Assembly (NCBI GenBank): GCA_965238305.1
Contig: CBDEHK010000001.1
Coordinates: 335,816-399,815, forward strand
Source of the DNA: Alphaproteobacteria bacterium
GTDB taxonomy: Bacteria > Pseudomonadota > Alphaproteobacteria > GCA-2731375
Direction: 5' to 3'
Length of the DNA: 64,000 nucleotides
Every line of letters begins with the position of its first letter. Within the stretch, counting starts at the first letter, position 1. A program made the translations under genes and the position numbers. Positions 52,588 through 63,623 of this stretch are shown here, piece after piece. Below the pieces are notes generated by a model. It was not told the origin of the DNA. It saw only the letters and a program-made list of their open reading frames with translations, and made no database searches.

Positions 52588-52664
<77 letters not shown>

Positions 52665-52752: not shown

Positions 52753-54849
52753 TCAAGACATATCCAGATCAGCAAAAAATTCCGACGCTGGTTTGATGCC
52801 TGTAACTAAAAGACGATCTCTTGCGCGGGTACAGGCGACGTAGAAGAGATGGCGTTCGGTTTCGTAAACCACGTCTAATTCTGTTTCGTCGGCGACGGTT
52901 TCGATACGTCGTTGCAAGGGCAAGATATCATCATCGCATTCAATGACCGCCACGGCTTTGAATTCCAGCCCTTTGGCTAAATGCATGGTGCCGATAGAGA
53001 CACGGCCTTCTCGTTCTTCTACCCGATCGGAAAGTTCCAGCGTCTTTTGACCGGCTTGCTTCACAACTTTACGCGCCCGCAGCAGTTCATCATTGCTGCG
53101 TACAAAGATGCCAATCTCGTCCGGTCCGATCCCATCGTCGATGGCCTGGCGCAGCCACCTTTCGACGCCCGCAGTTTCCTCGGCTAAGTCAGGAAAAATT
53201 TGCACTTCTGGTTCTGGCCCGTTGAAAATCGAAACCGTGCCTGAGCGATCTTCTTCGTTGCCATCGACATCGCGTACAACGGGGGGCAACAGACCATCTA
53301 CGGCTTGGCGGATTTGGTGCGACGTCCGGTAGTTGACCTTCAGCGTGTGCGATCGCCCACGAATATCGACGCCTAATGCCTTCCAGGAAAAGGGTTCCTG
53401 AAAAATGCGTTGCCCCAGATCGCCAGCGAAGAACAGGGCGCCTGGCTTTGGATCGGCGATGGCCGCGAGCATACGTAACTCAGACACGCCTAAATCCTGG
53501 GCTTCATCGACAATGATGTGGGTAAACGGTTTGTCTTGTCGTTCGGCAAAATGCGCTGTTACCTTGGCAAATACACTCGGCCAGGTGTCGAGGAGGTGAG
53601 CGCCCAATATTTGGCGCGCCTTTGCGAAGACAGGCCAGACGCGTTCACGCTGCTTCGATCCCAGTCGGTTCTTGCGACCTAGACGGCGAACATCGCGGTA
53701 GGCTTCCAGATCATTAAGTTGCCAGGCATCTACAACGTTGTTCCATTCTGAGATCAGGAAGCGATCGGTAAAACCTGTCAGCTTGAGTTCTTCGGCAGCG
53801 CCTTCAAGGGCCGCCTTTACATGTTTAGGTGTCGCCAGGTGGGGATGACGGGCAAAAGCCAGGGTAAATAAATCATCGGCGACGCCTTGGAATGGCAGGA
53901 TGGTCGCCTGACCGCCCGTTCCGTCCTTTCCGGTTAATAGTTCAAGTTTATGCTCAAGCGCGTTGGCAAGCGGCGACGAAAACGTCGTCAGCAACACTTT
54001 CGCCCGCTTGTCTTTGTTCATGATCGCGGCTGCCCGGTGTAACGCCACAACGGTCTTGCCGGTGCCGGCGGAACCGGATACGCGGGCCGGACCGCCAAAA
54101 GCTTGATCGACAATCCGGCGTTGGGATGGATGCAGAAAAATCGTCCATTGTTCCCATGGATAATCGAGCGCCCTTTGCAATTCTTCGACGTCGTCCAGTA
54201 CCCGGAAGCGACGCTGGGCATCGGGATGCTCGAAAGGATCAATATCGACCGGCGCAGTTTCAGCCAACCGCAGGACGCCGGTTGCGGCATAATCCAGCAA
54301 CGCTTCCGCCGCTTCTGCCGGCATATGGTCAGCGAGTTCGAAGAAGTTTTCTTCGGACGCTTGCAAAATATCGCCAATCCAATCTTCCGGCACCCCGATG
54401 TCCAGCAACTGATCGGCCGATAGATCCTGGAATAGCGGCGGCAGGTACTTTTCCTGCGGCACATCGCTGGCCGGAACGGGTTCAGGCGCGACATAAACCG
54501 GCAGGGTTATTTCCTCGACCCGCTCCCGCACTTCGACAATTTGCGCGGCGCCGGTCTTCGGGTGGGCCTCGATCCGCCGCCGTTCCGCCCATTTATAAGC
54601 GTCATCATGATGGTCGGCGTAACAAACCAGAAAGCTTTTCGCCGTTTTGTGGACGATGACGCGGATATCGCGGTTAACCCGGATCGACCAGAAGTTCGGG
54701 TCCTTCGATTTGTCAATGCGATGGAATTGCAACCCCGGCGACGACGGATCCTGCTGCATGTCGAAGACAGTGATCTTGACCGCCGATTGCTCTTGTGCCG
54801 TCAACCGCGCTAGGGCTTTGGAGAAACTATCAGCAAGGCGGAAAAGCAT
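52753..54849 (-). CDS. RelE/ParE-like N-terminal domain fused to a UvrD/Rep-like SF1 DNA helicase; last gene of the island operon
   Basis: SF1 motifs: GSAGTGKT, IIVDEAQDL, FFAGDLGQRIF, LKVNYRTSHQI, TMHLAKGLEFKAV and FYVACTRARDRLLV. Residues 1-95 read ...FHRIDKSKDPNFWSIRVNRDIRVIVHKTAKSFLVCYADHHDDAYKWAERR. Confidence 0.85.
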   Translation of the reverse strand: MLFRLADSFSKALARLTAQEQSAVKITVFDMQQDPSSPGLQFHRIDKSKDPNFWSIRVNRDIRVIVHKTAKSFLVCYADHHDDAYKWAERRRIEAHPKTGAAQIVEVRERVEEITLPVYVAPEPVPASDVPQEKYLPPLFQDLSADQLLDIGVPEDWIGDILQASEENFFELADHMPAEAAEALLDYAATGVLRLAETAPVDIDPFEHPDAQRRFRVLDDVEELQRALDYPWEQWTIFLHPSQRRIVDQAFGGPARVSGSAGTGKTVVALHRAAAIMNKDKRAKVLLTTFSSPLANALEHKLELLTGKDGTGGQATILPFQGVADDLFTLAFARHPHLATPKHVKAALEGAAEELKLTGFTDRFLISEWNNVVDAWQLNDLEAYRDVRRLGRKNRLGSKQRERVWPVFAKARQILGAHLLDTWPSVFAKVTAHFAERQDKPFTHIIVDEAQDLGVSELRMLAAIADPKPGALFFAGDLGQRIFQEPFSWKALGVDIRGRSHTLKVNYRTSHQIRQAVDGLLPPVVRDVDGNEEDRSGTVSIFNGPEPEVQIFPDLAEETAGVERWLRQAIDDGIGPDEIGIFVRSNDELLRARKVVKQAGQKTLELSDRVEEREGRVSIGTMHLAKGLEFKAVAVIECDDDILPLQRRIETVADETELDVVYETERHLFYVACTRARDRLLVTGIKPASEFFADLDMS

Positions 54850-56024
54850 TAGTGGGATTTTTCGTTTTTGTCGTTTGAATTGCGTTTCAAGGCTGTAGTC
54901 AATTTCTCAAGGAGAGAATTGACCATCGCATCTTCGTCGCGATTTTGGGCAAGTTCGATCGTTTTTTCATCCTTGCGCATAATGATATTTCGTTCTGATT
55001 GAAGCAGTTCTTTAGATAACTCACTCACCTGTTTGAGCGTCCCATGCTCAATTGCCAAAAGCGCACCGGCCTGGCGAAGGCTTAAAGTAGTTGCTTCGTT
55101 GGAAAAGTAGCGCATCATCTCCAAAGCCTTGGACTGATAGCGGAACATTATCAATGCCAGAACTTCTGCCAAAATTATGAAAGGAAGAGTGAAGGGGAGG
55201 TGACGAAACATGAACAATACTGAACTGCGCCCGCCTGGTTCGTTAGCGGAAACGGCATTCGTAAGGTCTCGTACGGTGCCAGACAACGTCGCATCTTCGC
55301 TGAAGTATAATATCAAGCTGTATGCGGCTATTGCAATCCCAGACAAAGAGAGCGCTAGTCCGATGAGGCGAAATAGAACAGCGGTGCGTTGTGCGGCAAG
55401 TGTCTGATCTAGAATACGGATTCGGTTAAGGTTGAATAAATCCGAAATACTTTGAATTAATCTTATTCGATCGGCATGATCTTTCGCCTGCTTTGCAACA
55501 CGCTCGCCTAGCGCAGCAACGATATCGCTGCCAAGCTCTTCATCCAATTTCACCTCAATTATTGCGTCTGCATTCGCCGTCAATTCACTAATATCAAGAT
55601 TGTTCGTTTTCTTCTCTAAGGAATCAATACGAGAAACAAGATCCCGGCGAAGACTTTCTATTGCAGATGACTGCTCTCGTTCTGCACTTGCAAGTTCAGA
55701 AAAATCTGCAGCACCTCTCCGAAGAATAAACTGACGAACAAACCTGAAAAAAATAACTGAAATTGTAAAAACTCCAATGGCCATCAATCCGAGAAAAGTT
55801 AGAAGAAGAAATGTGTCTGTGAATATAGTGCTGTCGCTCTTTCTATTTTTGTCCTTCTCCAGAATCGAGCCAACTTCTGAGAAGAAACTTTCGAGTTCGT
55901 TGCCGATTGAGAAGACCACCGCCACAATAGCAATTGCGATAGCGGCGGCGATTAACACATATTCAATAGCTGTGTTTCCTTTTATGTCCGAAAGGAAATT
56001 GCTACGTTGATTAATTCGTTCCAT
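54849..56024 (-). CDS. Four-TM coiled-coil membrane protein with an Flp-pilin-like N-terminus; function unknown
   Basis: 391-aa ORF, AT-rich, with an N-terminal KGNTAIEYVLIAAAIAIAIVAVV segment. Three further hydrophobic helices are separated by charged heptad-like segments. A TAATG overlap links it to the downstream helicase gene. Confidence 0.7.
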   Translation of the reverse strand: MERINQRSNFLSDIKGNTAIEYVLIAAAIAIAIVAVVFSIGNELESFFSEVGSILEKDKNRKSDSTIFTDTFLLLTFLGLMAIGVFTISVIFFRFVRQFILRRGAADFSELASAEREQSSAIESLRRDLVSRIDSLEKKTNNLDISELTANADAIIEVKLDEELGSDIVAALGERVAKQAKDHADRIRLIQSISDLFNLNRIRILDQTLAAQRTAVLFRLIGLALSLSGIAIAAYSLILYFSEDATLSGTVRDLTNAVSANEPGGRSSVLFMFRHLPFTLPFIILAEVLALIMFRYQSKALEMMRYFSNEATTLSLRQAGALLAIEHGTLKQVSELSKELLQSERNIIMRKDEKTIELAQNRDEDAMVNSLLEKLTTALKRNSNDKNEKSH

Positions 56025-56027
56025 ATT

Positions 56028-59015
56028 CTATACCCCAAAAACTTTCATCACTTCGTCACCGAAGTGGTTGATGACTTTGACGGCGAAGCGGCCGGTGGAG
56101 GGGCGGGCGAAGGGGATGCTTTTGTCGCGGTAGAGGGTTTGCCAGGCTTCCTCATCGATCTCCGCCTTCAGCGTAGTCTTCAGTGATTTGTACGGGTCCT
56201 GGGCGCCCATGAAATAGGCATGGCGGACGAAAAAACTTTCTTCGTCATAATCGCTGTCGATGAACCAGGCGGCGATGTCGTCCTTGCCGCTGGCGCGCAC
56301 CTCGCCGGTCTTGGGATCGAAGACGTCGACGCCCAGAACTTCGACGGTGATCATGCCGTCGTCACCGAAGGCCCATTCGATGTCCGGTTCGCCAAAAACG
56401 ACGAACAAATTGCCGGCTCCGGTATTTTTTAACTCGTCCGACATATGTAGGTCCGGGTTCATCTTCGCCTTTAGGATCGGCAATGGACCAAGCTTGCTCA
56501 GCTCCGACGTATGGGCATCGAAGTTGAAGCCGCAGGCGATCAAGGTATCGAAGCGGGCATCCAAGGCTTCGCGCGCCGCCGCCGTCAAATCGGCGCGGGT
56601 GATCGAGCCGAATTCAGGGCCGATGAAGATGGCGCCCCGGCGTTCGGTCTCGCCCTCCATATAGCGGCCTTCGGCGGCGATATAGTTGCCGGGCCAACCG
56701 TCGATGGTGGTGAAGCTTACGCGATCTTCCTTGGCGGCTTGATGGACCCCGGCGGATTTCAAATTGTCCAAGACCATCGTTGTGAAATCGTTCAGCGGCG
56801 CCGGCGTGTCGCGTTTTTCCTTCCGGCCTTCGGCGGCATCGACCAATTCGATCAGTTCTTCGTTATCCGATGTCTGCATGCGGTGCGGCGACAGGCTTTC
56901 GACCGTGAAAGGCCCGGCGACGCGGACCTTGGCCTTGTCCTCGTAAGGCCGATCATAGAGATATTCGACGTCTGCTTTTTTCGCGATGGAGGCGTCGATT
57001 TCCCGCTGCCGGGCGATCCGCTGTTGCCACCAGTCGCCGTGTGCCTTCAATACTGCAGCGGACCAACCTTCGCCGGCTTCGCGGGGAATTTCCCATTCCT
57101 CCCAGGCTTCGCCCAGGGCATCTTTCAGCGCCACCCGCAACGATTCCAGTTTTTCCTGATAACTTTCCAAGATCACATCGATTTCGGCGTTGTTGGCGAT
57201 GACGCCGGATGTAATGTACCTAGACCTTTTATAAACAAAGCCTTGGCGGATATCGCCCTGGGTCGAAGTATCCGGCTGAATGACGCCGGAAAGCTCCTGT
57301 TCCTTTGTTTGGCCTTCGGCGCTGTCGGCAAGCAGATAATAGGGATAACGCGCGCCCATCAAGCGCGCCCGCGCCAGGGCCAGCGAGACCCGAGAGGTAT
57401 CGACGGTGATCCAGCGCCGCCCCCACTGCTCCGCTACAAACGCAGTCGTGCCTGAGCCGCAAGTAGGATCGAGCACGATGTCCCCTGGGTCCGTGGCCAT
57501 GAGAATACAGCGTTGCACCAGGCGCTCATTTGTTTGAACAATATATACTTGGCTGGAAGCCCCCCCAAATCCATCCCACCAATTCGAGATGCTCTTAAAA
57601 GGAAAATCCTCCAAATATCTCCTATAATCTAGGCTTGTCTTTGATGGGATTAACCGCCCAGCAAGTTTTACTCGTTCCATCCCAGTAAGGCCGACCATCG
57701 TATCCTTGGACGTATGGCTCCAACAACGCCCCTTTGGCGGATCAAAAGACTTACCTGACAAAACAATCGGGGCCATTTGGTTTTCACGGAATCCACCGTT
57801 GGTGATTGGCCATGGTCTGAATAGTCTAGCGTTCGGGTAATCTTCCTGAATTCGCTTTGGGTAAAGGCGGTAATCTATGTATTCGCCATCAATATCTTCA
57901 TTGGACTTGAGGTTAATAGTTTTTCCATCAGGCAATTCCAGTCTAGAAAACTCGTCGATCGTTTCATTATCAAGAAGTCTGTCAACGAATAGACTTCTGT
58001 ATTTAGTTACGCCCCTTGCGCGTTCTGATTTCCCGTACCACAAAATGAAATCATTAACGGGATCTATCATTGAGCTTTTTTGTGATCCTTTTTTCTTGAC
58101 AAGAATTTCAGTGATAAAACTCCCCTCCCCAAACACCTCATCCATCAGCGCGCGGACCCGGTGGACGTTTTCGTCGCCGATTTGCACGAAGATGGAGCCG
58201 CTGTCCGTGAGCATGTCGCGCATTACGGTCAGACGGTCGCGGAGATAGGTGAGATAGGAATGGATGCCGTCTTTCCAGGTATCGCGGAAGGCTTTGACCT
58301 GTTCCGGTTCGCGGGTGATCTGATCCAGCTTGCCGTCCTTCACGTCGCGGCTGCGGGTCGAAACCTGCCAATTGGAATTGAACTTAATGCCATAAGGTGG
58401 ATCGAAATAGATGCATTGCACTTTGCCGCGTAGTTGTTCCCGCTCAGCCAGGCTGGCCATGACCTGCAGACTGTCGCCCAGGATCATGCGGTTTTGCCAA
58501 TTGCGGTCGTGCTGATAAAACTCGGTCGCCGCTTCCGGATCGATGCCGTTGAAATCGCCGAACAAGTCCGGCATTGCCGCTTCCTGTTCCCGCCGTTCGT
58601 CGGTTTGGCGTTTCAAATCGTCAATGATTGCCTTGGGGTGAATTTTTTCCTGGATATAAAGCGGCGGTGCCTGCACCACCAGGTCAGACCAGTCTTGTTC
58701 ATCCTTGCCGCGCCAAACCAATTGCGCATCGCCGATTTCTAGCTTGCCGGTTTCCTTTAATTCTTCGATCTGCGCCGGATTCAGACGCAGGGTCGCGCCC
58801 TTCCAGATGATTTGCGGGTCCAGATCGCCTTCGCGCGGCCGTGTTGCCCCTTCCATCAACGGATCTTCGCGGGCATAAGTCACCGGCTCCACCGGCGCCA
58901 TCTCCTCCGCCCGCTGCGCCACCGTCTGCAACTCCGCCGTTGGAATATTCTTCCGCCGCGCCTTCTCATGCTTCAGCGTCTCGACTTGCTTAGCTTTTTT
59001 TGGCTTACGCGCCAT
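56028..59015 (-). CDS. Large beta-class DNA amino-methyltransferase (N6-A or N4-C), Type III Mod-like
   Basis: 995-aa ORF. Motif IV (IYFDPPYG) precedes motif I (VLDPTCGSGTTAFVAEQWGRRWITVD), which is the beta permutation. An AT-rich central segment between the two motifs is the presumptive target-recognition domain. Confidence 0.88.
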   Translation of the reverse strand: MARKPKKAKQVETLKHEKARRKNIPTAELQTVAQRAEEMAPVEPVTYAREDPLMEGATRPREGDLDPQIIWKGATLRLNPAQIEELKETGKLEIGDAQLVWRGKDEQDWSDLVVQAPPLYIQEKIHPKAIIDDLKRQTDERREQEAAMPDLFGDFNGIDPEAATEFYQHDRNWQNRMILGDSLQVMASLAEREQLRGKVQCIYFDPPYGIKFNSNWQVSTRSRDVKDGKLDQITREPEQVKAFRDTWKDGIHSYLTYLRDRLTVMRDMLTDSGSIFVQIGDENVHRVRALMDEVFGEGSFITEILVKKKGSQKSSMIDPVNDFILWYGKSERARGVTKYRSLFVDRLLDNETIDEFSRLELPDGKTINLKSNEDIDGEYIDYRLYPKRIQEDYPNARLFRPWPITNGGFRENQMAPIVLSGKSFDPPKGRCWSHTSKDTMVGLTGMERVKLAGRLIPSKTSLDYRRYLEDFPFKSISNWWDGFGGASSQVYIVQTNERLVQRCILMATDPGDIVLDPTCGSGTTAFVAEQWGRRWITVDTSRVSLALARARLMGARYPYYLLADSAEGQTKEQELSGVIQPDTSTQGDIRQGFVYKRSRYITSGVIANNAEIDVILESYQEKLESLRVALKDALGEAWEEWEIPREAGEGWSAAVLKAHGDWWQQRIARQREIDASIAKKADVEYLYDRPYEDKAKVRVAGPFTVESLSPHRMQTSDNEELIELVDAAEGRKEKRDTPAPLNDFTTMVLDNLKSAGVHQAAKEDRVSFTTIDGWPGNYIAAEGRYMEGETERRGAIFIGPEFGSITRADLTAAAREALDARFDTLIACGFNFDAHTSELSKLGPLPILKAKMNPDLHMSDELKNTGAGNLFVVFGEPDIEWAFGDDGMITVEVLGVDVFDPKTGEVRASGKDDIAAWFIDSDYDEESFFVRHAYFMGAQDPYKSLKTTLKAEIDEEAWQTLYRDKSIPFARPSTGRFAVKVINHFGDEVMKVFGV

Positions 59016-59931
59016 CTACTTGCCCCGTAGTTACAAACATCGGCTTTTGGTGCGGACCCGGCGAGTGGCCAAGAACTTCCACTATTTCATAACTGTCATT
59101 AACCCATGCGCCGATCATTTCATCTTTTTTTTGATGGATGCGGAGCATAACTCGCAATGTATCACCAGTTCCAATGACGTATTCATGGCTAGCTAATTTG
59201 TCGTAAAACATGTCATCTAGGATCGGCGCTGATATCTTTATCCCGTCACGCCAGACAAACTGCCATTTACGTGGCCCGCGTTCAAAGATTGCGCGGATAA
59301 TCAGAAGTTCGGTTTTTTCATATTTGTTGCGACGATTTTCTTGAGAAATGACGATATCACGTACTTCGGAAAGGCGAGGGAATTGAGCGCGCGGAACATT
59401 TACGAGAAGTTGCTCATCCTTAATGTCCTTAGCAATTCCAAAATTCTGTACGTCTTGGTCTTTTTGCAATATTTCGAACGCATTCGAGACCCTTTGTTCA
59501 AGCTCAAGATTTTTAGAGATTTTCTCTTTCTGCTCGCCAACTTCTTTTGGAAGAATAACCCTTTGGTTGCCAGATTCTACGACGTAATGATCGTCGTTCA
59601 CGTAGATGTTAATGTCGGGATCGTCTGCGATAAATTTCTCATAAATAAAGGCCGTAAGTAATCCAAGTACGATCGTCAACGCAGCCGTGCGAATGAGTGG
59701 AGTCGCTCGTTTCGATAATGTCCTTATACGTGCCCTAAAAGAGCCTTCGCCCAAAGCATCAATGTAAATCTCAATCTCAAAATCAGGATTAATCGCCCTA
59801 CTTATTTCCTTTATTGCCGAACTGACTTCGAGCAAGGTATTGGCAAATGTTTCTGCGTTAATTCGGCCGAACTCACCACCAAAGTGAATTACAAATTCGT
59901 CGCCTAGACTTGTAAGGTCAACGGTTTGCAT
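59005..59931 (-). CDS. Orphan 308-aa protein with one predicted TM helix, inserted between res and mod
   Basis: AT-rich ORF. Its start overlaps the res stop (TGATG), and its stop lies 8 nt inside mod. It has one hydrophobic helix (LIRTAALTIVLGLLTAFIY). I recognise no family motif. Confidence 0.65.
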   Translation of the reverse strand: MQTVDLTSLGDEFVIHFGGEFGRINAETFANTLLEVSSAIKEISRAINPDFEIEIYIDALGEGSFRARIRTLSKRATPLIRTAALTIVLGLLTAFIYEKFIADDPDINIYVNDDHYVVESGNQRVILPKEVGEQKEKISKNLELEQRVSNAFEILQKDQDVQNFGIAKDIKDEQLLVNVPRAQFPRLSEVRDIVISQENRRNKYEKTELLIIRAIFERGPRKWQFVWRDGIKISAPILDDMFYDKLASHEYVIGTGDTLRVMLRIHQKKDEMIGAWVNDSYEIVEVLGHSPGPHQKPMFVTTGQVDGA

Positions 59932-62900
59932 CAGCTACCACCCTTCTGCGCGGCTTTCTCGATCAACGCCTTAAACCGCTCATCCATCTTGAACACCTCA
60001 CCGAATTCTTCGAAAGACCAGCGGCCGTAGGTGCCAAGATTATTGACGCCGGGGATCCACTGGGTCTTCATTGTTTCGGATTTCAGTTTGACGTTTTCGT
60101 TGCGGTAACCTTTCACTTCGACGATCAAGTGCAGCGGATCGTCCGCGCCATGGCCGTCGTCGATTTGGACGATGAAGTCGGGGATATAGTGTCGGGCGGT
60201 TGAGCCGTCCTTGTATGGCACTTCCAGGCCCAGGCCCTGGTTCTTCACATAGGAAATGACCTGCGAATGCTGTTCCGCGACACGAGCGAATTCACCTTCC
60301 CAGTCGCTGTCTTCCACGACGAAGTTGATGTGGCATTTATCGGCTGCGGTCTTCCAAAGGTCTTTGGTGGTACGAAAGCCGACATGGGCGGTGGAGCCAT
60401 TGGGGTTATAGGGATCTAATACGGCTTTGATCTTTTGCTGATCGCCGATGGAGCGGATGATGGCGTGATAGATGCGTTCAGAGGCTTGATTGGCGATGTT
60501 CAGATATTCCAACATCCAGGCGCCGGTATCGCCGGTGCAAACAAGATACCCACCTTCAATCCATTGTCGAGCAATACGGCGTAAAGGCCAAAACAGGTGC
60601 AACTTGGGCTCGCCATCCTGGTCAGTGTAATATTTGTACATCAAATGTTTGGCGAGATCGTAGGCGATGGTGCTGGGTCGTTTGCTTTGCGCTTCCGCTG
60701 CCGTGATTGTCATGCCTTCACCGACGATACCTTCCATCCGCGTTTGGCCGGGTCCGACCAATTCGGGCGTCAGCACGAATTTTGAATCCTCGGTGAATTC
60801 CGCCGTCAATTTTTCTTCCGGCATTTCGACGCGATAGCCGGTGACGCGCGGGAAGGTAATTTCCAATGCGGCGCGTTCCTTCACCGCCGCGACCCAGGTC
60901 GACGGCTTGGGTGGTTTCACAGGGGCGACTTGCGGTTTGGCGGTGAAATCAAACGGGATGCCTAGAATGTCGGCATATTCAACGTCGAACAGATCTTCGT
61001 CATTCAGATCATAAGAATAACGACGTAATCCGCGGCCGACCACCTGTTCGCAAAGCAATTGGGTGCCAAAGGCGCGAATACCAAGGATATGGGTAACGGT
61101 GTTGGTATCCCAACCTTCAGTCAACATGGATACGGAGACAACACAGCGCACTTGCTCGCCCAAGCGTCCGGTTTTGCCGACCGTGTTCATCACTTCACGC
61201 AACAGGTCGGCATCGGTTTCGTCCGCCAGTTCGCCCCGTTGTCGGCGTTCGCGGCGGAACTGTTCGATTTCGCCTGCCGCCATAGTTCGAAAGTTCTTAT
61301 CCAGCGCTTCGCCGGATTCCAATTGAAAGCTGTCGATTAGCAGCGTGTTCGGTCTGGCCAGCGGCTCGCCATATTCGTCGTAATTACGAAATAGTTCCAG
61401 ATGGCCGTGATGCTCAAAAACCATCTCACCATCTTCGTTCGACCGTTGCCAGCCGGAAATCCATTCATGGACCAATTTTGATGTCGAGGTATTGTTGCAG
61501 ACGACGATGAAGACTGGTGGTGTTTCAATCCCCGCACGCTGCCATTCCGCATCGGTTTCTTGATAGTGTTTATAGAGCGCATATAGCGCTGTTTTAAGCG
61601 TGTCGTGGATCAACAGGGGATCGCTAGTGGTTCGCCCCTTCTTCGGCATATACTTGCCGATATGTTCCCAAAGATCGCGGAAGATCGGCATGTCTGCGCC
61701 GGGGATATTGTCGGCAACCGGGACGCGCGGCAGCTTGACGATGCCGCATTCAATGGCGTCCATTAATGAGAAGTCGCAAACCGTCCAGGGGAACAAGGTG
61801 CCTTCGGCCCAGCCCGACCCGCTTAAGAAAAACGGTGTGGCAGAGAGATCGTAAACGGCACGGACGCCTAGCTTGCGCTTGAAGGCTTCTAGGCCGCTGA
61901 TCCAAACGCGCGCCGCCTTGTTGTCCGCTTCCGCTTCTTTTTTTTCGTCACCCCTTAGATCCGCAACATCATCCGTGCCTGTTTTCGCGCGGTAACAATG
62001 ATGGGCTTCATCATTGATCACCAAGATATTTTTCAGGCCCATTAGGGGATCGGCGACACGGCGGATCATCTGACCTTCGGTTTCCTGTGTCTTTGGCGCT
62101 TCACCACGGCCCTGCAGCAGCGAGCGGCCAATTTTATTGGTTGCCATCTGCTCGCGCAGCTGAAAGGCGTGGTAGTTGGTGATGACGATCTTGGCCTTAT
62201 GGACGTCCGGCAACATATCCGCAGGTACCAGTTCGCGTGACTGATAGTAACTGTCGACATCGTTGGGCTGCAGGACCCGCAAACGGTCTTTAATAGTAAT
62301 ACCCGGCGTGACGACCAGAAAACCACGCGTGAAAAGTCGGCTGGTGGGTGAGCGCACCGCATTCACGGTCTGCCAGGCGATCAACATCGCCATCACCGTG
62401 GTCTTGCCAGCACCGGTGGCCATTTTCATCGCCAGGCGGATCAGTTCCGGATTGGCTTGCTCATTGGCGCCATGGACATGATCCCAATACCCCTTGTGCG
62501 TCTTTTGCGTCCGCGCCACTTCGGTTAGCCAAATGATCGTCTCGACCGCTTCGATCTGGCAGAAGAAAGGGCGGATGCCCTGGAACTCGTGATGACGCCA
62601 ATGCTGCAGAAGTCGAGCGGTCGCCGGGGTGACACCCCAATCGGACTGGCTTGGCAGTCTTCGCCAATTGGCAACATGCGTGCGGATCTCATTAATGATC
62701 GGCGTTGGGTTGTATTCCTGCTCTTCCGATGAAATGCCATCATTGCCAGCCAAATCCATAGCCGCCTGCTTCGGGTCGGCTTTCTGGCGCCGTTTCCTGG
62801 GTTTTGGCACCGGCGTGATAAACTCCGATCGTCGGCGGCCAGCGTTGGGCGGATTGTCTGTCGGTTGCCCTTCATCGTCCAAGTCGTGATAGCGGCCTGG

Positions 62901-62951
62901 CTCCTCATAAGGGGAGTTGAGAATTGGCTGTTCGTAAAAGCTATGGGCCAT
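59931..62951 (-). CDS. Type III-like restriction enzyme Res subunit (SF2 helicase/translocase plus a C-terminal PD-(D/E)xK nuclease)
   Basis: 1006-aa ORF whose N-terminus (FYEQPILNSPYEEPGRYHDLDDEGQPT) is typical of this Res family. It has Walker A (MATGAGKTTV), DEAH (VINDEAHHC) and motif VI (QVVGRGLRR), plus a C-terminal YIPDF...LIVEVKGY nuclease motif. Confidence 0.88.
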   Translation of the reverse strand: MAHSFYEQPILNSPYEEPGRYHDLDDEGQPTDNPPNAGRRRSEFITPVPKPRKRRQKADPKQAAMDLAGNDGISSEEQEYNPTPIINEIRTHVANWRRLPSQSDWGVTPATARLLQHWRHHEFQGIRPFFCQIEAVETIIWLTEVARTQKTHKGYWDHVHGANEQANPELIRLAMKMATGAGKTTVMAMLIAWQTVNAVRSPTSRLFTRGFLVVTPGITIKDRLRVLQPNDVDSYYQSRELVPADMLPDVHKAKIVITNYHAFQLREQMATNKIGRSLLQGRGEAPKTQETEGQMIRRVADPLMGLKNILVINDEAHHCYRAKTGTDDVADLRGDEKKEAEADNKAARVWISGLEAFKRKLGVRAVYDLSATPFFLSGSGWAEGTLFPWTVCDFSLMDAIECGIVKLPRVPVADNIPGADMPIFRDLWEHIGKYMPKKGRTTSDPLLIHDTLKTALYALYKHYQETDAEWQRAGIETPPVFIVVCNNTSTSKLVHEWISGWQRSNEDGEMVFEHHGHLELFRNYDEYGEPLARPNTLLIDSFQLESGEALDKNFRTMAAGEIEQFRRERRQRGELADETDADLLREVMNTVGKTGRLGEQVRCVVSVSMLTEGWDTNTVTHILGIRAFGTQLLCEQVVGRGLRRYSYDLNDEDLFDVEYADILGIPFDFTAKPQVAPVKPPKPSTWVAAVKERAALEITFPRVTGYRVEMPEEKLTAEFTEDSKFVLTPELVGPGQTRMEGIVGEGMTITAAEAQSKRPSTIAYDLAKHLMYKYYTDQDGEPKLHLFWPLRRIARQWIEGGYLVCTGDTGAWMLEYLNIANQASERIYHAIIRSIGDQQKIKAVLDPYNPNGSTAHVGFRTTKDLWKTAADKCHINFVVEDSDWEGEFARVAEQHSQVISYVKNQGLGLEVPYKDGSTARHYIPDFIVQIDDGHGADDPLHLIVEVKGYRNENVKLKSETMKTQWIPGVNNLGTYGRWSFEEFGEVFKMDERFKALIEKAAQKGGS

Positions 62952-63308
62952 TGATAGTCATTATTCGCCATTTGTGTGATTAAGTTGGACGAACAAGATG
63001 AATCGCGCAACTAGTAAAGCTGGAATTCTAAACACCTATCGAGAATTTGGGCAATAGCGCATATTGAATGTCGACTGATAAAAAACAATCCTAGATCCGT
63101 AGGGTAGACTTGTGACGATATGAATAACCGGCGAGCTGCAGTTGAGCATCGCTGGCGGCATCGCAAAAAGCATTAGGCGCGTGAACTTGACGTGGCTATT
63201 TCCACAAAAACACTCGTCGTATTATGTCTGATATGTTATGTTATTACATAGCTAATTGTGTTAATATCGACACATGTACGATGCGTACGCGTCATGGGGT
63301 TTTAGAAA

Positions 63309-63623
63309 ATGCGGGTCAGAACGCAAAGCCGATTGAAAACGGGCTATATCTGTGGCGCCAAGACGCGCAAAGGTACCGCTTGCCTTGGCATGCCGTTGGA
63401 AAATGGCCGTTGCCTACATCATGGCGGCCTCAGTACCGGCCCGAAATCGTCGGAAGGTCGGGCCAGGATCGCCACCGCGCAAAGTCAACGTCACGCTGCG
63501 GCAAGGCAACGCGCCAAACTCCTACGCGACGCTGAAATGTGGTACACGCAATTTTTGGCCCAATATGACCCATCAAAACTGTCCACGTTTAAGTCATTGA
63601 TTTATGAGGAGAAATCAGATTGA
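63309..63623 (+). CDS. HGGxSTG-domain small protein (a type common in mobile and integrative elements)
   Basis: Reads CGAKTRKGTACLGMPLENGRCLHHGGLSTGPKSSEGRARIA, containing the eponymous HGGxSTG motif. It is surrounded by AT-rich non-coding DNA. Confidence 0.7.
   Translation: MRVRTQSRLKTGYICGAKTRKGTACLGMPLENGRCLHHGGLSTGPKSSEGRARIATAQSQRHAAARQRAKLLRDAEMWYTQFLAQYDPSKLSTFKSLIYEEKSD

Follow-up and report, generated by a model that had tools for sequence, protein, structure and literature searches.

Defence genes embedded within the operons of other defence systems have been described for several carriers. The Hma system consists of HmaA (an Snf2 protein with a NOV_C/DUF3883 nuclease), HmaB (a DUF1156 methylase) and HmaC (a DUF499 ATPase) (PMC8565338, PMC11232893, PMC12839542); of 1,485 Hma loci, 62.7% contained embedded genes according to Payne et al. 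(10.1101/2024.01.29.577857), and Liu et al. described an insertion hotspot within hmaABC (PMC11232893). Payne et al. also presented 145 'PDC' candidates, predicted by embedding, from genes located within BREX, DISARM and Type I restriction–modification (R-M) systems (10.1101/2024.01.29.577857). TgvAB is found inside a Type I operon of V. cholerae, on VPI-2 (PMC11411939), and PrrC of EcoprrI is an effector nested in the R-M operon which senses the state of the R-M enzyme (PMC12707154). In Gabija, DNA ends produced by GajA are reported to activate GajB (10.1101/2023.05.02.539174), and MANTIS (Gao_RL, MtsABCD) is a methylation-based defence with a helicase–nuclease effector and a second ATPase (10.64898/2026.09.23.753747). 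Here we present the analysis of a five-gene operon from an alphaproteobacterium (assembly GCA_965238305.1, contig CBDEHK010000001.1), which encodes a Type III-like restriction protein (Res), its methyltransferase (Mod), a superfamily 1 (SF1) helicase and two further proteins of 308 and 391 amino acids (aa). The window, that is the whole stretch of DNA that was analysed, comprises 64,000 nucleotides (nt), and positions are counted from its first letter.

Based on the comparative data, the locus is probably a three-gene Type III-like R-M unit (res, mod and the helicase gene) with two slots inside the operon, each of which holds an independently mobile single-gene defence candidate. Slot 1 lies between res and mod and contains the 308-aa gene; slot 2 lies between mod and the helicase gene and contains the 391-aa gene. 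Across many phyla the trio is conserved, its genes share one orientation and they diverge together; the 308-aa and 391-aa genes are of foreign origin and independently mobile. The locus is to be read as modular, and not as an unclassifiable five-gene system.

As had been predicted from the DNA alone, searches of all five proteins with PADLOC, Pfam, NCBIfam and PHROGs gave no fit to BREX, DISARM, Dnd/Ssp, Zorya, Hachiman, Wadjet or Gabija. Concerning MANTIS, the likeness lies in a methylation-based defence with a helicase–nuclease and a second ATPase; no PADLOC match of the five proteins points to it. In the literature searched, no paper was found on the trio (referred to below by the BPTD_3080 family of its Res), its helicase partner or its carrier role, an absence which is not proof, and a search on RelE, UvrD-like helicases and R-M gave nothing specific to this trio.

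The res–mod–helicase trio

The five open reading frames (ORFs) are all on the minus strand, start with ATG and run head to tail from 62951 to 52753; this array, with its coordinates and junctions, was part of the original prediction and is borne out by direct reading of the DNA. The junction of res and the 308-aa gene (GGTAGCTGATGCAA) is a TGA/ATG overlap (TGATG) with one common A at 59931, and that of the 308-aa gene and mod (GTAGATGGCGCGTAAGCC) an 11-nt overlap (59005-59015). Between mod and the 391-aa gene (GGGGTATAGAATATGGAA) there is a 3-nt gap, AAT (56025-56027), and the 391-aa gene meets the helicase gene (CCCACTAATGCTT) in a TAA/ATG overlap (TAATG) with one common A at 54849. The start codons of Res, Mod, the helicase and the 308-aa protein are backed by homologues aligning from residue 1, and that of the 391-aa protein by its Pfam Flp_Fap match. 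All features are presented in Table 1.

Res matches the NCBIfam model NF046055 (BPTD_3080 family restriction endonuclease) with 1296.2 bits (cut-off 800), its residues 7-996 aligning with positions 2-969 of the 970 of the model. It contains the Pfam domains ResIII (131-322) and RE_endonuc (877-964), a Walker A motif (MATGAGKT) and a DEAH-like motif (NDEAHH), and its residues D925, E945 and K947 are invariant among three homologues. The score against the canonical Type III endonuclease model NF012027 is 23 bits, far under the cut-off of 564; in PADLOC only REase_III models are matched, over a mere 45-68 residues, and the sequence search of the PDB found no relative, EcoP15I Res included. Mod contains the N6_N4_Mtase domain (199-542, E 2e-32) and matches the PADLOC MTase_III model PDLC03632 end-to-end with 1139 bits; its closest PDB relatives are a Type III Mod (6k0w, 5.6e-16) and EcoP15I Mod (4zcf, 7.5e-13), and its DPPY motif lies ahead of the S-adenosylmethionine-binding motif DPTCGSGTT. 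The Type III-like Res/Mod pair proposed earlier is supported by these Type III relatives of Mod and by the combination of ResIII with a C-terminal endonuclease domain in Res.

Compared with the Type III R-M systems EcoP15I and EcoP1I, the locus shares the β-class Mod, with its Type III structural relatives and its PADLOC class, and a Res that combines a superfamily 2 (SF2) helicase-like ATPase with a C-terminal PD-(D/E)xK nuclease. It differs in that Res belongs to the separate BPTD_3080 family and not to the canonical Type III endonuclease family, in the gene order (res then mod here, mod then res there) and in the length of Mod, which is about 350 aa longer here. Also, the Type III systems are two-gene mod–res units, whereas here a conserved third gene (the SF1 helicase, in 49 of 60 loci) and two cargo slots are present. 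Type III enzymes hemimethylate an asymmetric site, and their cleavage requires ATP and a pair of unmodified sites in inverse orientation.

To place these genes across bacterial lineages, one genome per species was scanned with an alignment of Res, and more than 582 genomes were found at species level to carry a relative. The best-scoring 80 loci (designated by L numbers; 61-79% identity) were searched with the five window proteins by tblastn. They are distributed across Alpha-, Gamma- and Deltaproteobacteria, Nitrospirota, Acidobacteriota, Planctomycetota, Cyanobacteria, Clostridia and other groups. Mod is found downstream of Res in every related locus having enough sequence. Among the 60 loci with intact Res and Mod, a helicase homologue with 50-77% identity to that of the window follows Mod in 49: it is full-length (50-76% identity), N-terminal domain included, in 37 and partial in 12, the latter either running off the contig or being decayed. 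In all 49 it comes after Mod on the operon strand, and never in slot 1. No helicase match is found in the other 11 loci, about five of which have too little downstream DNA to judge. The identities to the window proteins across loci (n=39) correlate with r = 0.94 for Res and the helicase, 0.82 for Res and Mod and 0.85 for Mod and the helicase. Six trios are free of cargo, with junctions of at most 122 nt (L010, L026, L028, L035, L077 and L079), and in cargo-free loci the helicase gene overlaps or abuts mod. The PGAP annotation of a Pseudomonas amygdali plasmid gives the same order of res, mod and helicase.

From its presence in 49 of 60 loci and its co-divergence with Res (r = 0.94), the helicase is therefore considered the core third gene. 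The original prediction had counted it among three extra genes added to res and mod, a view that does not hold across the many phyla sampled; lack of co-conservation with res and mod, raised there for all three, is found for the 308-aa and 391-aa genes and not for the helicase.

Concerning the helicase itself, Pfam assigns UvrD-helicase and UvrD_C domains to what is a diverged SF1 enzyme with intact motifs (Walker A, GSAGTGKT), and its PDB relatives are Rep, UvrD and PcrA. The best PADLOC matches are to GajB models (E 3e-23), over partial stretches. The N-terminal region matches a Pfam HigB-like toxin weakly (E 0.009, under the cut-off), and a profile built from 21 sequences gives a weak, sub-threshold match to YoeB (2a6q, E 0.91); in the latter alignment the invariant residues R63 and H81 line up with the catalytic R65 and H83 of YoeB. 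A single-sequence search of the PDB with this region found no match. Some homologues of the helicase are named 'SF1 helicase/mRNA-degrading endonuclease RelE' by JGI. The N-terminal domain is found in 2157 clusters, in N-terminal position in nearly all of the 150 listed, and the helicase family comprises at least 8000 clusters, far exceeding the Res family sample. The conserved third gene of this Type III-like R-M family appears to be a helicase fused to a toxin-like domain.

Many members of the helicase family are labelled '3'-5' exonuclease' by PGAP. No exonuclease domain was detected here, and the label is likely an annotation artefact spreading through the databases. The family is also found on Thermus plasmids: on the Thermus thermophilus plasmid NZ_AP025610.1 (L090, 3462-10995), a full-length homologue with 35% identity, N-terminal domain included, comes after an 1838-aa DEAD/DEAH helicase and a very large N-6 methylase, adjoining a type III-A CRISPR locus.

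Damaged helicase genes are found in L025, L032, L038, L043, L048, L054 and L064; only an ORF of 113 aa, corresponding to the N-terminal domain, is left in L054. The idea that the partial helicases are swapped domains, or N-terminal domains standing on their own, was considered and rejected, as they look like truncations, frameshifts and a split by an insertion sequence (IS). In L033 (16051-20610), Mod is followed by a VWA-domain protein and an 802-aa tubulin-like (Tubulin_2) protein, with no helicase within 7 kb; cargo of this kind is unusual in a defence operon.

Several points weigh against the three-gene unit with two cargo slots, and most of them concern the helicase. It is absent from L047 and L061, in which Mod is followed by genes of the housekeeping or recombinase type, and from up to three further loci (L033, L049 and L087) despite more than 5 kb of downstream sequence. 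In about seven loci with intact Res and Mod it is truncated, frameshifted or IS-split, so it may be dispensable for restriction; this decay could reflect dispensability, counter-selection or errors in metagenome assemblies. The occurrence of the family downstream of a different methylase/helicase pair in Thermus counts on the same side, as does the sample, which takes the best-scoring 80 of the more than 582 genomes and includes many metagenome-assembled genomes. The putative RelE/YoeB assignment of the N-terminus is weak, given E-values of 0.009 and 0.91. As to the cargo, we infer the defence role of PDC-S42 (the family of the 308-aa protein) and of the 391-aa protein from context, and structural searches with the models of both yielded no mechanism.

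The same data bear on a second reading, according to which the R-M system consists of res and mod only and the helicase is a very frequent, self-contained single-gene passenger at the 3' end of the operon. Its absence from some loci and its decay in others would be expected of a passenger, and so would its occurrence after the unrelated giant methylase and DEAD/DEAH helicase of Thermus, the size of its family relative to the Res sample and its GajB-like segments. However, a passenger would not be expected always to lie downstream of Mod on the operon strand, to overlap or abut Mod where cargo is missing, or to match the core in base composition (55.3% GC). Its divergence also tracks that of Res, unlike the cargo, for which the 391-aa homologue of L092 is 44% identical to the window protein when the core genes are 70-78% identical. 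We consider the passenger reading unlikely, and the helicase is treated below as the third gene of the unit.

The resemblance of the helicase to GajB of Gabija lies in the UvrD-like SF1 core, and activation by DNA ends from a partner nuclease, as reported for GajB (10.1101/2023.05.02.539174), is a plausible analogy. The differences are that no GajA-like protein (in Gabija an ABC ATPase with TOPRIM, encoded adjacent to GajB) is found among the five proteins or in the window, that the helicase matches the GajB models in parts only, and that it carries the RelE/YoeB-like N-terminal domain, which is not mentioned in the GajB descriptions consulted. GajA-like AAA_15 ATPases are found in slot 2 of L001, L064 and L088, which is suggestive and not a rule. 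In these three loci the AAA_15/AAA_21 (GajA/OLD-like) ATPase lies directly upstream of the helicase (L001, 14635-16332; L064, 16608-18251; L088, 17263-18960). The resulting ATPase–helicase pair resembles Gabija and raises the question of a helicase shared between Res and the nuclease/ATPase of slot 2.

Table 1. Features of the locus, with positions in the window; genes in operon order, followed by domains and flanking features
Feature	Position	Strand	Description
res, core gene 1	59931-62951	-	1006 aa; SF2 helicase-like ATPase with C-terminal PD-(D/E)xK endonuclease, BPTD_3080 family
308-aa protein, slot 1 cargo	59005-59931	-	PDC-S42 / 'LAPAL' family (PADLOC, NCBIfam)
mod, core gene 2	56028-59015	-	995 aa; β-class N6/N4 DNA methyltransferase
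391-aa protein, slot 2 cargo	54849-56024	-	Four hydrophobic segments, central coiled coil, highly conserved C-terminal region
Helicase, core gene 3	52753-54849	-	698 aa; UvrD/Rep/PcrA-like SF1 helicase with putative RelE/YoeB-like N-terminus
Helicase N-terminal domain, putatively RelE/YoeB-like	54505-54849	-	Residues 1-115
Flp/Fap pilin-like module of the 391-aa protein	55866-55997	-	Residues 10-53; Pfam PF04964
tRNA-Arg(CCG)	52588-52664	+	ARAGORN; near island edge, 88 nt from helicase stop
Promoter-like site upstream of res	63025-63054	-	TTGCCC-18-TAGAAT, 9/12 consensus matches; weak

Cargo genes in the two slots

The genes of the window fall into two groups according to base composition. The GC content is 54.7% for res, 54.9% for mod and 55.3% for the helicase gene, and 43.6% for each of the 308-aa and 391-aa genes; at third codon positions (GC3) the values are 59-65% for the former and 42-43% for the latter. 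The earlier observation that two genes are more AT-rich than res and mod is confirmed, and their suggested later insertion is borne out by this foreign base composition and by their occurrence outside the operon.

Across the related loci, a slot was counted as filled when the gap between res and mod exceeded 200 nt or that between mod and the helicase gene exceeded 300 nt. The gap at slot 1 varies from 6 to 4215 nt and is filled in 35 of 60 loci; at slot 2 it varies from 6 to 5838 nt and is filled in 41 of 49. The slots contain 142 proteins in 104 clusters, nearly all encoded on the operon strand. Based on Pfam, the content of slot 1 includes HATPase_c_4/AlbA_2, Bro-N, 23S_rRNA_IVP four-helix proteins, YhcG/DUF1016, GmrSD, DUF4062, HepT, Fic, RhuM and PIN, and PADLOC finds in it the single-gene candidates PDC-S13, S05, S02, S04 and S42. 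Slot 2 contains AAA_15/AAA_21 ATPases, AAA with S8 protease, nSTAND, SIR2, HerA and ABC-3C according to Pfam, and LmuB (E 4.6e-172, five loci), IetA (E 6.7e-76, four loci) and AriA/PtuA/GajA-like ATPases according to PADLOC. The known defence systems among the fillers are Lamassu, IetAS and GmrSD; the slot contents in general have a defence character.

Differences in cargo can also be found among the closest relatives of the window. L010, with a Res of 79% identity, has no cargo. L092 (Res 78%) contains a 269-aa protein and an NYN protein in slot 1 and a homologue of the 391-aa protein in slot 2, and in L095 (helicase 76%) slot 2 is occupied by a helix-turn-helix (HTH) protein and a GmrSD-like protein.

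The 308-aa protein had been described as an orphan, which is not the case: it matches the PADLOC candidate PDC-S42 (PDLC05015, E 2.7e-16, residues 13-299 against 6-299 of 302; PDLC05016, E 2.8e-15) and the NCBIfam model NF053583, 'LAPAL motif-containing putative phage structural protein' (169 bits, cut-off 60; residues 13-291 against 1-292 of 292). The hydropathy scan shows one hydrophobic segment (77-102), in agreement with the single hydrophobic helix proposed earlier. In the AlphaFold model, which is of good confidence (pLDDT 83), a small alpha/beta N-terminal domain is followed by this helix (approximately 77-102) and a beta-rich C-terminal domain, for which Foldseek gives weak, partial OB-fold-like matches. 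Foldseek found no significant PDB match for the model, and its significant structural neighbours (BFVD) are uncharacterised phage proteins only; among the PHROGs it matches phrog_3243. A search of a large protein database gave 71 homologues, most of them outside this operon. Apart from the window, the gene is present in two of 62 related Res-bearing loci, namely in Sneathiella chinensis (L001) and on a metagenome contig (L005). Elsewhere, members of the family stand by themselves in islands or have IS elements as neighbours, and one comes immediately after a Type I hsdMSR operon. In the temperate Listeria phage vB_LmoS_188 (L094, 5989-6876), the homologue lies in the lysogeny module, with the integrase on one side and a 'superinfection immunity' gene on the other. 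This location, beside these two genes and outside the structural module, argues against the label 'phage structural protein', and the name given to NF053583 is probably wrong. The literature search found no paper on PDC-S42, BPTD_3080 or the LAPAL motif.

The 391-aa protein has hydrophobic segments at 16-48, 65-101, 214-242 and 268-296 in the hydropathy scan, which agrees with the four transmembrane (TM) segments already assigned to it. Its N-terminus contains a Flp/Fap pilin-like module (PF04964, 40.3 bits, cut-off 32.2) with a prepilin-type G/xxxxEY motif, KG|NTAIEY; this is a domain-level match and the protein itself is not a pilin. None of the 10 homologues has this module, their N-termini being unrelated; it may have been acquired as a signal or anchor, or may point to processing by a peptidase of the Tad type. 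These 10 homologues are all that was found in 5.8 billion (5.8e9) proteins; the conserved part of the family comprises the last TM segment and the C-terminal helical region, and the conserved C-terminus matches phrog_5157, of unknown function (E 1e-8). The structural model, from a shallow alignment of 11 sequences, is of low confidence, with a pLDDT of 63; its fold search gave generic coiled coils only, and the profile search of the PDB was empty. The gene is present in none of the 80 loci of the scan and in one further locus, L092. There it occupies the same slot, starts 5 nt after the Mod stop and overlaps the helicase start as in the window; it is 44% identical to the window protein, the flanking core genes being 70-78% identical. 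Another homologue is found beside a Gabija-like pair on a MobC/NikA plasmid-like contig, and another among IS elements. The protein is too rare for filters based on abundance, yet it is found twice in the same defence slot.

It could be argued, as the strongest form of the original prediction would have it, that all five proteins form one obligate, novel five-component machine, in which the membrane proteins are sensors or effectors coupled to Res, Mod and the helicase. The very tight coupling of the five ORFs (overlaps of 1, 11 and 1 nt and a gap of 3 nt) is in line with this, as is the L092 homologue of the 391-aa protein, with its identical slot and stop/start overlap. The distribution of the genes speaks against it: the five are not one co-conserved set, as had been supposed, the 308-aa gene being found in two of 62 related loci and the 391-aa gene in none of 80. 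Also, both small genes are found alone elsewhere, cargo-free trios exist, the nearest relatives carry entirely different cargo, and the small genes differ from the core by more than 10 points in GC and about 20 points in GC3. The comparative data largely refute such a machine, which we consider extremely improbable.

Another possibility is that the two small genes have no defence function, the operon having trapped either regulators or what is left of phage structural or pilus genes. The name of NF053583, the matches to phrog_3243 and phrog_5157, the uncharacterised phage proteins found by Foldseek and the Flp_Fap match could be read in this way. Against it, the phage homologue of the 308-aa protein is located in the lysogeny module and not among head or tail genes; its bacterial homologues belong to defence islands, follow a Type I R-M operon or form part of the present one; the slots are otherwise filled by known defence systems and PDC candidates; and the Flp module is missing from every homologue of the 391-aa protein. 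A non-defence origin is considered very unlikely, and we retain the reading of both genes as mobile defence candidates.

Concerning the carrier, the closest analogue in logic is Hma, which is DUF499-centred and related to BREX; the two are not homologous. Both combine a helicase–nuclease, a methylase and a second NTPase. Defence genes lie between the core genes in approximately 63-66% of Hma loci (10.1101/2024.01.29.577857; PMC11232893), compared with 35 of 60 and 41 of 49 slots here, and the cargo pools overlap in ABC-ATPase systems and GmrSD-like genes. There is no homology at the family level, the domains here being ResIII/RE_endonuc, N6_N4_Mtase and UvrD. Assignment to Hma was rejected, as no Snf2/NOV_C, DUF1156 or DUF499 matches were found and no Hma model is among the PADLOC matches.

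Type I R-M systems with embedded effectors resemble the locus in housing additional defence genes, which act independently, within an R-M operon (PMC12707154; PMC11411939), and the comparison with prrC made in the original prediction, of a second effector embedded in an R-M operon, fits. Candidates known from embedding in Type I R-M, BREX and DISARM (PDC-S02, S04, S05, S13 and S42) recur in slot 1, and one homologue of the 308-aa protein follows hsdMSR directly. The difference is that the carrier here is Type III-like, and the likeness to PrrC, a guard that becomes active when its host R-M enzyme is inhibited, is one of position (embedding) only. The trio is a further common carrier operon for embedded defence genes, in addition to Hma, BREX, DISARM and Type I R-M, and guilt-by-embedding logic is therefore applicable to hundreds of further loci. 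The principle of embedding has already been published; what is new is the carrier family, the helicase with its putative toxin domain and the very rare membrane cargo.

Proposed action of the trio and its cargo

In the mechanism that we propose, Mod would methylate the host sites, and Res, using ATP and its PD-(D/E)xK domain (D925/E945/K947), would cut unmethylated incoming DNA. The helicase, by analogy with GajB, might load on the DNA ends or stalled complexes left by Res, and might then either complete the destruction of the invader or switch on its RNase-like N-terminal domain, with an RNA-directed or growth-arrest output. The two cargo proteins would act as independent second-line abortive-infection effectors, probably at the membrane. 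By riding in the operon, a cargo gene would gain co-expression through tight translational coupling, as well as co-transfer; prrC, TgvAB and the genes embedded in Hma, BREX and Type I operons would follow the same strategy.

A more far-reaching view can be put forward tentatively, although we hold it to be somewhat improbable: the trio could be a distinct, widespread and as yet unnamed three-component system, with the helicase as a true third subunit which, for example, responds to DNA ends or stalled restriction complexes with abortive infection by way of RNase activity. The junctions would then serve as a docking platform for interchangeable effectors, and the 391-aa protein and PDC-S42 would represent novel effectors acting at the membrane, perhaps switched on, like PrrC, according to the state of the R-M enzyme.

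Island setting and neighbouring genes

The locus had been described as an island flanked by tRNA-Arg. The tRNA gene is indeed present at the near edge (Table 1); the far boundary is not visible within the window, where neither a second copy of the 3' end of tRNA-Arg(CCG) nor an integrase was found. Because both are missing from the window, the far boundary is placed past 64000, and the island evidently carries on beyond the window end. Upstream of res, a weak promoter-like site is present; consensus matches of this kind are fewer across the region than in shuffled sequences, and the promoter and terminator scans of the region performed no better than shuffles. An ORF of 104 aa (63309-63623, plus strand) is also located upstream of res on the opposite strand, within a stretch of 45-49% GC. 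It contains a Cys-rich segment and an HHGGLSTGP motif, and the Pfam search with it gave no match.

A tRNA gene is found within 10 kb in 10 of the 50 related loci that were scanned (including L014, L019, L021, L028, L029, L049, L061, L082 and L095). The tRNAs are of different kinds, namely Gly, Lys, Ala, Arg(CCG), Met, Pro and Val, which would fit a trio carried by integrative elements with differing tRNA target sites. In Sneathiella (L001), the genes preceding the trio encode an integrase, an HTH_17 protein and a Toprim/DUF3987 primase.

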